A DNA stretch of 64,000 nucleotides from Candidatus Heimdallarchaeota archaeon (GTDB lineage: Archaea; Asgardarchaeota; Heimdallarchaeia; JABLTI01). A program made the position numbers and the translations under genes. The stretch is taken from contig JABCTZ010000026.1 in NCBI GenBank assembly GCA_018238155.1, positions 148,269-212,268 on the forward strand, given 5' to 3'. The notes below the pieces were generated by a model. It ran no database searches and was not told the DNA's origin. It was given only the letters and a program-made list of their open reading frames with translations. This document shows positions 3,745 to 4,797 of this stretch, one piece after another (positions within the stretch are counted from its first letter, which is position 1; each line of letters starts with the position of its first letter).

Positions 3745-4797
3745 ATGCAAAGGGAACAATGCAATATCAATGGGAATTCCGAAATCGAAAACGTATATCT
3801 TTGCAAGATTTTGCTTTTTACTGAAGATGCACGTAAACTTGCGGAAAAACTCAGACCAATTTCAGGGAATTCTGTGAGTACAAATTGTCTTGATACTATT
3901 GGCATGTATCCTCTTGTAGAGCATATCGAAACATCTCTAGGAACGCTTGCCATGTCCATTTGGATAATTAATACTGAAGAGAAATTCTCTCAGTTTAGAA
4001 TGGGCTATTTTTCAGGAGCATCTCAATCTATCGTTTTATGCAATGATCAAGAAGAATTAAACAACTTTGAAAAACTTTATCTGATGACTCCAACGGGAGT
4101 TCCTACAACAGTTTTATCAAAAAATGCTAACGATAATGAACTTCCACTTGATCAAGAAAATATCTTATTAGCTAACGAACCTTTATTTGAAAATCAAGGA
4201 CGTATGATAAATTATCGAAAAATATCTGATTTACAGTCAATTAGAACAGTTTTCAAAGATATTGGAAATAAAATATCTGAGGATATTGCCTCAGGACATT
4301 ATCACATATTTACTCCAGATTTGGTTTCTCCTTCTAACATTTATAGGTTCTATAACAAGGAATCTTTCAATAAAGTCCAGGAATTAGTTGGCAAACTCGG
4401 GTATGAACTAAACGAAAAAGGTATTGTCAGCATTTCACAAACCGAATTTTCCTTTGAAGTCGATTTCTATCGAAATCAAGTTGCCGCTTTCATTAGCAAT
4501 TGTTTACATTGTGAAAAGAAGTGCAAACATTATAGAAAACTCTGTGTAATTGAAGAGGATCAAGGATATTCCAACAAAATACATTTCGATAATCTCCGAG
4601 CGTTGGCAATTTTGTATGCGATTCATGACGGTGATTTCGAAAAATTGCATGGCAAGAATGAAAAAGAAAATATTAGTTTTCAGCTTCAACGGTTGAGAAA
4701 TCATTACCAGGTTAATTGTGAATTTGAACAAAAAGAGAGAGAATTTCAAGAACAATCACTAAAAATCCTCCGAAAGAAGAGAAAAAAATCAAATTGA
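3745..4797 (+). CDS. Degenerate Rab/Ras-like small GTPase domain fused to a Cys-containing C-terminal domain
   Basis: TIG...SIWIINTEEKFSQFRMGYFSGA aligns with Rab TIG...IWDTAGQERF...YYRGA; no GxxxxGK; C-terminal CLHCEKKCKHYRKLC. Confidence 0.6.
   Translation: MQREQCNINGNSEIENVYLCKILLFTEDARKLAEKLRPISGNSVSTNCLDTIGMYPLVEHIETSLGTLAMSIWIINTEEKFSQFRMGYFSGASQSIVLCNDQEELNNFEKLYLMTPTGVPTTVLSKNANDNELPLDQENILLANEPLFENQGRMINYRKISDLQSIRTVFKDIGNKISEDIASGHYHIFTPDLVSPSNIYRFYNKESFNKVQELVGKLGYELNEKGIVSISQTEFSFEVDFYRNQVAAFISNCLHCEKKCKHYRKLCVIEEDQGYSNKIHFDNLRALAILYAIHDGDFEKLHGKNEKENISFQLQRLRNHYQVNCEFEQKEREFQEQSLKILRKKRKKSN

Follow-up and report, generated by a model that had tools for sequence, protein, structure and literature searches.

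PseudoGTPases are usually seen as an addition that eukaryotes made to small-GTPase signalling. Among known prokaryotes, the Asgard archaea are most closely related to eukaryotes; their repertoires of Rab-, Arf-, and Rag-like GTPases are expanded and, to our knowledge, hardly any of the native partners of these proteins has been identified. Among the eukaryotic pseudoGTPases, CENP-M is a case where the absence of nucleotide binding was measured (PMC4080450), and p190RhoGAP is reported to have two nucleotide-free pseudoGTPase domains (as cited in PMC10211241). The Rab-like proteins of Lokiarchaea have been described as intact GTPases whose C-termini are short and lack a polybasic region (PMC4915359). 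Asgard GTPases occur as single-domain proteins or fused with roadblock and longin domains, and a crystal structure of Thor-Rab is available (7EZB; PMC10933270). We found in the literature no description of the family presented below, nor of any Asgard pseudoGTPase.

We analyzed a gene located at positions 3745-4797 (+) of a 64,000-nucleotide stretch from a Candidatus Heimdallarchaeota genome, hereafter called the window. The gene is an open frame of 350 codons, the coordinates including the stop codon, and has 37 orthologs with 47-85% identity. A preliminary description, made from the DNA letters only, had proposed that it encodes a pseudo-Rab fused to a putative zinc-binding domain. Every string quoted there is present in the 350-aa frame, and the pseudo-Rab observation was confirmed. 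When compared with Asgard Rab-like GTPases and with Rab1/Ypt1, Rab8/Sec4, and Rab11, the product (P0001) lacks G1, G3, G4, and G5, has a 165-aa extra C-terminal domain with a polybasic tail, and has no prenylatable terminal cysteine. It has no significant match in Pfam or NCBIfam, and we found no hydrophobic segment in it; the product is probably a soluble two-domain protein. The novel elements of this analysis are a phylum-wide census of the family, a gradient of motif relics, a map of selection, a predicted conformation resembling that of exchange-factor-bound Rabs, and a co-inherited neighbor of 520 aa.

The Rab-like domain and the loss of its motifs

The Rab-like G domain spans residues 16-185 (3790-4299, +). 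A profile of the 37 orthologs searched against the PDB matched Ypt1, Rab1, Rab8, Sec4, Rab10, and Rab35 with E-values of 1.2e-6 and weaker, and Rabs made up 60 of 60 among the matches listed. The AF2 model of P0001 has a pLDDT of 75 overall and of 80-94 in the G core, with a pTM of 0.51 that leaves the arrangement between domains uncertain. Foldseek searches with this model returned small GTPases only, with Rabs at the top (E 1e-8). In the model, the domain has a six-stranded beta sheet and five helices that can be superposed on solved small GTPases. Hence, the proposal that the N-terminal 180 residues would model as a G domain was borne out by AF2, Foldseek, and VIA (see below). Further afield, 6 of 17 distant family members reach the Pfam Ras family unaided (best E 1.4e-20). 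The genome has 42 Ras-family matches, and the gene under study falls outside that set. The first half of P0001 probably descends from a Rab-type GTPase.

We placed the motifs by aligning P0001 with three intact Rab-like paralogs from the same genome. At the former P-loop (G1; residues 26-33; 3820-3843, +), where GxxxxGK[ST] is expected, P0001 has TEDARKLA opposite GDGAVGKT, and the same replacement is found in all 37 orthologs. The stretch from switch I through beta2 and beta3 to switch II (residues 44-98; 3874-4038, +) carries the RabF-like strings TIGMYP, SIW, (K/R)FxQFR, and Y(F/Y)SGA. In switch I, CLDTIGMYP stands opposite YKMTIGVDF with the threonine retained, and in switch II, YFSGA stands opposite YYRGA. 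The RabF-type motifs are thus partially matched (IGMYP/SIW/KFSQFR/YFSGA against IGVDF/QIW/RFSKIR/YYRGA in the intact paralogs). Within this stretch, the former G3 reads WIINT (residues 73-77; 3961-3975, +), with WIINTEEKF opposite WDTGGQERF. At G4 and G5, SKNAN and KISD are found opposite GNKID and ETSAK. P0001 therefore lacks the Rab G3 DxxGQ, G4 NKxD, and G5 SAK, having WIINTE, SKNAN, and KISD at the aligned positions, where the 37 orthologs show no conserved motif either. The protein ends in RKKRKKSN, and its last cysteine (C325) lies within the folded C-terminal domain, i.e., the prenylatable C-terminal cysteine is absent.

The loss is widely shared. All 37 orthologs have LLFTxDAxxLAExL at the P-loop site and SIWII(S/N) at the DxxG site, their length is 337-351 aa (one shortened entry excepted), and 50 positions are invariant across the set. 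For the wider family, we assembled 115 domain-bearing proteins, from 60 fetched genomic loci and from databases, sampled across Asgard archaea. The GxxxxGK[ST] motif is found in 0 of the 37 orthologs and in 0 of these 115 proteins, in line with the expectation of the preliminary description that the loss of G1 and G3 would be conserved. What remains are relics: G-x5-K[ST] in six of the 115 (e.g., GPEEGFKT and GENEEYKS), WDxxG in one, with a WDILG relic seen among the relatives, and [NT]KxD somewhere in the sequence in five. None of the 115 combines even relaxed versions of the three motifs. P0001, without even the first P-loop glycine and the lysine, is among the most degenerate members. With a G-domain fold and a conserved loss of the G motifs, it has the two features of a pseudoGTPase. 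Judging from the sequences sampled, the motif loss is ancient and phylum-wide. The gene probably belongs to an old Asgard-wide family, of which it represents the most degenerate branch (group A) and whose members never have an intact Rab-like domain. Since the P-loop, DxxG, NKxD, and SAK are lost, P0001 is most likely unable to bind guanine nucleotides or to switch, as far as the motifs and the model can tell.

We then mapped selection along the protein, computing dN/dS against an 85%-identical ortholog (dS 0.65). The value for the whole gene is 0.114, which indicates purifying selection; that of the C domain is 0.086. Residues 44-98 (switch I-interswitch-switch II) have a dN/dS of 0.056, to be compared with 0.118 for the G domain. 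The frequency of the major residue follows the same lines: in the G domain, it is 0.87 in beta1, 0.83 in switch I-beta2-beta3 (residues 44-76), and 0.75 in switch II (residues 77-91), and the most variable parts are the former G1/alpha1 (0.58) and the former G4 loop (0.34). The switch region is conserved and the replacements of G1 and G4 are variable. Hence, selection appears to preserve the surface through which Rabs contact effectors and regulators, rather than the former pocket. This agrees with the earlier suggestion that the effector-binding surface was kept.

These data bear on two alternatives. One is that the G domain has remained a switch, with a non-canonical pocket that accommodates a nucleotide or some other small ligand. 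The relic motifs of some relatives speak against a blanket loss of nucleotide binding, so that non-canonical ligand binding may occur in parts of the family, and the residues replacing G1 are moderately conserved in group A (the 0.58 above). However, P0001 lacks both P-loop glycines, the lysine, the Ser/Thr, the Asp and Gly of G3, NKxD, and SAK, no family member unites the motifs even in relaxed form, and conservation within the G domain is lowest at the former pocket. We regard this alternative as quite improbable. The other is that of a recently decayed Rab gene without function, for which the missing motifs alone would speak. It is refuted, and keeps practically no credence, given the low dN/dS (0.11 at dS 0.65), the frame being intact in 37 orthologs and in 10 of 10 other genomes of the genus, the 50 invariant positions, and the phylum-wide character of the motif loss.

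In real Rabs, the open nucleotide-free shape taken on an exchange factor is a transient intermediate of the cycle. We searched for structures resembling the P0001 model with VIA, and complexes of Rabs with exchange factors took 16 of the best 17 rows, most of them nucleotide-free; the exchange factors in these rows are SH3BP5, Fuzzy-Inturned, Mon1-Ccz1, TRAPPII/III, Rabin8, GRAB, and Sec2. The predicted shape thus resembles that of nucleotide-free Rab11-SH3BP5 (6djl), Rab8-Rabin8 (4lhx), Sec4-Sec2 (2eqb), Ypt7-Mon1-Ccz1 (5ldd), and Ypt1-TRAPP (3cue), with the difference that what is transient in these Rabs is predicted to be permanent in P0001. The model fits nucleotide-free, exchange-factor-bound Rabs best, which is consistent with a permanently empty domain. 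One should keep in mind that the open shape is a trait of an AF2 model computed without ligand, and that the altered P-loop and switch I alone may explain it.

The C-terminal cysteine domain and the tail

The second half of P0001 consists of an alpha/beta domain (residues 204-335; 4354-4749, +) and a polybasic tail. Modelled alone with 31 diverse sequences, the domain reached a pLDDT of 84.6 and a pTM of 0.79, with the order alpha1, beta1-3, a short cysteine-bearing turn or knuckle, beta4, a loop, and alpha2-4. The knuckle, C253-x2-C256-x3-C260-x6-C267 (4501-4545, +), is modelled with a pLDDT of about 90. Among the 31 diverse domains, C260, C267, and C325 (4717-4719, +, at the alpha3/alpha4 junction) are invariant, as are G219, G274, L284, and Q313, and C253 and C256 are nearly so; H262 is conserved only in the subgroup of P0001. 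The conservation of the whole protein peaks in residues 269-297 (4549-4635, +), which comprise the loop EEDQGYSNxIHFDN and the helix LRALAILY(S/A)IHD, with major-residue frequencies of 0.84 and 0.89, respectively. The QGYSN part of the loop is highly conserved yet poorly modelled (pLDDT 64). The tail, ILRKKRKKSN (4762-4794, +), has a basic counterpart in every ortholog: the last 12 residues contain 3-9 Lys/Arg across the 37 orthologs, typically around six.

Searches with this domain gave no significant match. Its profile gave no match among PDB sequences at E-values up to 10, its fold gave no significant match in the PDB, the comparison with ESM Atlas structures gave TM values of at most 0.52 (to DUF4304/YbjN/CesT-type clusters), and the ESM Atlas feature search gave no usable match. 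In VIA, around 30 of the best 50 rows belonged to the UBC/UEV/RWD class. In the model, the C domain shares its order of elements (alpha1, a four-strand meander, a loop, alpha2, alpha3, and alpha4) with the UBC/UEV/RWD sandwiches, such as those of E2 enzymes, the Tsg101 UEV, the UEV-like domain of VPS37A, the UEV of BRCC45, FANCL, and the RWD domains of Knl1/Ctf19. We do not claim homology with UBC, as the C-domain alignment, compared by hhalign with 16 Asgard E2 proteins, reached a probability of 0.7%. The compact spacing of the cysteines resembles that of Fe-S cluster loops, such as the C-x6-C-x2-C-x5-C of EndoIII. Another candidate was suggested by the Asgard TRAPPC3, which binds zinc through four cysteines (PMC10933270). 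We found no TRAPP or V4R chain among the 50 VIA rows listed or among the Foldseek rows listed, and no Pfam V4R or TRAPP match. In the light of its model, the C domain is a confidently predicted fold without recognizable relatives. This well-modelled domain with five conserved cysteines is worth an experimental structure.

The preliminary description had called this a putative zinc-binding domain. Metal binding is plausible in view of the five conserved cysteines, and zinc is the part that does not follow from them, since the metal could equally be that of an Fe-S cluster. A cluster in place of a structural zinc would make P0001 a redox- or oxygen-sensitive adaptor. The compact C-x2-C-x3-C-x6-C and the distal invariant cysteine do provide five candidate ligands, and one family member has a weak match to Pfam Fer4_10 (E 0.003). 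On the other hand, the searches matched no Fe-S family significantly, no Fe-S assembly gene lies nearby, and the set of four ligands is not fixed, as C253 and C256 are missing from the family member P0050 and C260 appears to be missing from another (L021). We thus see the Fe-S cluster as possible, if somewhat unlikely.

Distribution, gene neighborhood, and candidate partners

We used a profile of the C-terminal domain to search for the family, and identified it in 152 of 400 Asgard genomes, representing 33 of 85 genera. Within the taxonomic family of the window, 10 of the 11 other genomes have it, and within the genus all 10 others do, mostly in two copies; a library-wide search recovered more distant relatives. 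The genome of the window itself encodes a second, shorter paralog of 312 aa (group B; L004:7995-8933, +, corresponding to C11:132994-133932). In a FastTree phylogeny of the C domain, read for its topology only, A and B form sister groups, and a long branch connects them to the rest of the family, within which they fall. This is a real and ancient family of prokaryotic pseudoGTPases.

The surroundings of the group B paralog differ from those of the group A gene. It is convergent with, and separated by around 30 bp from, a 445-aa gene (L004:8967-10304, -) with weak ParA/MinD/CobW-type matches, and this pair was seen again in two metagenomic contigs (L006 and L007). Around 6 kb upstream of the paralog there is a TnpB/IS605 OrfB-type gene (L004:528-1799, +) with OrfB_IS605 and a Cas12f1-like TNB domain. 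In some genomes of the Asgard family labelled f15 (L013:959-1978 and 2373-3143; L024:971-1942 and 4294-5046), there are three to six copies of the gene family, some of them nearly in tandem, and some copies consist of the cysteine domain without a recognizable G domain (250-256 aa).

Five orthologous loci of group A share one organization. On one strand are found a KH/Pno1-like gene, RIO1, and eIF-1A; on the other, the group A gene, a 520-aa gene starting 110-141 bp further on, adenylate kinase 13-20 bp after it and, in most of the loci, inositol-1-phosphate synthase. In the window, the divergently transcribed eIF-1A gene (Pfam; 3073-3513, -) is followed by the RIO1 kinase (2016-2972) and the KH/Pno1-like gene, the 520-aa gene lies at 4911-6473 (+), and the archaeal adenylate kinase (Pfam AAA_17, E 8e-29) follows 20 bp later at 6494-7087 (+). 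The eIF-1A frame measures 146 aa from its first ATG, against 131-137 aa in the orthologs, and its true start is probably a downstream ATG.

This organization, head-to-head with eIF-1A, RIO1, and KH genes in five loci down to 47% identity, raises the possibility that P0001 acts on RNA or on the small ribosomal subunit, with the zinc-knuckle-like CCxC motif and the basic tail binding RNA. Yet a single archaeal family has this arrangement, the contexts of the sister paralog B and of the members from other lineages are unrelated to it, and no RNA-binding fold was detected in the C domain. A role on RNA is, in our view, unlikely.

The 520-aa gene is the best candidate for a partner, as it is co-inherited with the group A gene. 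The two are adjacent and co-oriented in 10 of the 10 genomes where one contig spans both, and their NCBI locus tags are consecutive. The 520-aa family was found in all 11 genomes of the taxonomic family to which the window belongs and in 0 of 388 elsewhere in the phylum (E 1e-10). The protein has conserved domains at its N- and C-termini and, between them, a helical or coiled-coil part (around residues 165-400); its matches in Pfam and the PDB are of coiled-coil type only, and those from the ESM Atlas feature search were unnamed archaeal clusters with low recognition. Against the pairing, a 113-bp gap lies upstream of the 520-aa gene and the coupling to adenylate kinase is tighter (20 bp). Co-folding of the two proteins gave an ipSAE of 0.00 in both runs, which counts neither for nor against the pairing. 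The distance of only 13-20 bp in every locus suggests that the 520-aa gene is co-transcribed with the housekeeping kinase.

In other lineages, the neighbors of the family are different. Hence, gene order points to no single partner common to the family. In the Thor-type arrangement, a label that rests on P0056 (Thorarchaeota), a 167-aa SLOG/LOG-like gene (Pfam LDcluster4, best E 6e-47) directly adjoins or overlaps the pseudo-Rab gene and is itself followed by a gene for a metallophosphoesterase; the copy from the genomic locus L015 aligns with P0056 residue for residue over the overlap. This operon-like unit is found at L005:7104-7607 and in 16 further loci (e.g., L065:1938-2438). In the largest Asgard family sampled (f20), the family member is followed by a same-strand 140-aa ORF, and around 1 kb downstream lies the gene of an Arf-like GTPase with its motifs intact (GLDNAGKT, WDMGGQ), which might represent the pairing of a dead and a live GTPase (L018, L025, L084, L086-L089, and L092). 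There, UPF0047 is the commonest Pfam match among neighbors of the size class of the 140-aa ORF.

The preliminary description had pointed to the longin-domain proteins of the window as possible partners of the pseudo-Rab. The genome is indeed rich in longin and roadblock proteins, and among the best structural matches of the model are Rabs in complex with exchange factors of the longin-based kind (Mon1-Ccz1, Fuzzy-Inturned, and TRAPP), a likeness that makes longin proteins a possible class of partners. However, the one longin-like gene noted in the window (22005-24179) is encoded on the other strand at a distance of around 17 kb, with unrelated genes in between, none of the five orthologous loci has a longin or roadblock gene as a conserved neighbor, and neither is among the top families of the 145 neighbors of family members. 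The genome has 11 matches to Roadblock (PF03259), none of them inside the window. The proposal thus finds no support in gene order, and we consider a partnership with these particular proteins to be very improbable.

Proposed mode of action and comparison with known systems

Our preferred explanation is that P0001 combines a switch-less Rab-like docking module with a metal-bound cysteine domain. We hold it to be probable, a judgment that covers jointly the soluble two-domain product, the Rab-type descent of the first half, and the position of the gene as the most degenerate branch of its family. As the switch face is preserved and the former pocket is not, the G domain would most likely be a constitutive docking module for a partner that recognizes the switch I-interswitch-switch II face. 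The open shape, which Rabs normally show only when nucleotide-free on their exchange factors, is predicted to be its permanent state. The C domain would be held by a metal center formed by four of the five conserved cysteines, its most conserved loop and helix suggest a second binding site, and the polybasic tail could hold P0001 on acidic membranes or on nucleic acid. The 520-aa coiled-coil protein encoded next door would be the best candidate for binding the docking face.

A bolder extension can be envisaged, in which Asgard-wide, permanently nucleotide-free Rab mimics lock exchange-factor-type partners, coiled-coil or longin-based, via their switch face, and a fused UBC/UEV-like metal domain recruits a second partner. 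It is speculative and we give it a low probability. If true, such mimics would be a prokaryotic forerunner of the scaffolds that eukaryotes make from pseudoGTPases, and in archaea they would regulate small-GTPase circuits as natural "dominant-negative" proteins. In practical terms, a permanently nucleotide-free Rab should grip its partner tightly, which would make P0001 a bait for regulators and effectors of archaeal Rab-like proteins.

Returning to our preferred explanation, P0001 is probably a switch-less docking protein, of a kind that has so far been described mainly in eukaryotes. The presence of a dead yet strongly conserved family in more than a third of the sampled Asgard genomes suggests that the non-switching use of the G domain for docking would predate eukaryotes. 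For comparison, the lack of nucleotide binding was measured in CENP-M and is read from motifs and model in P0001. Unlike CENP-M and p190RhoGAP, P0001 would have originated independently, from an archaeal Rab-like lineage; it occurs in a prokaryotic setting and is fused to a cysteine-rich domain. Like them, it has kept the small-GTPase fold under purifying selection after the loss of the P-loop and would use it as a scaffold or docking module.
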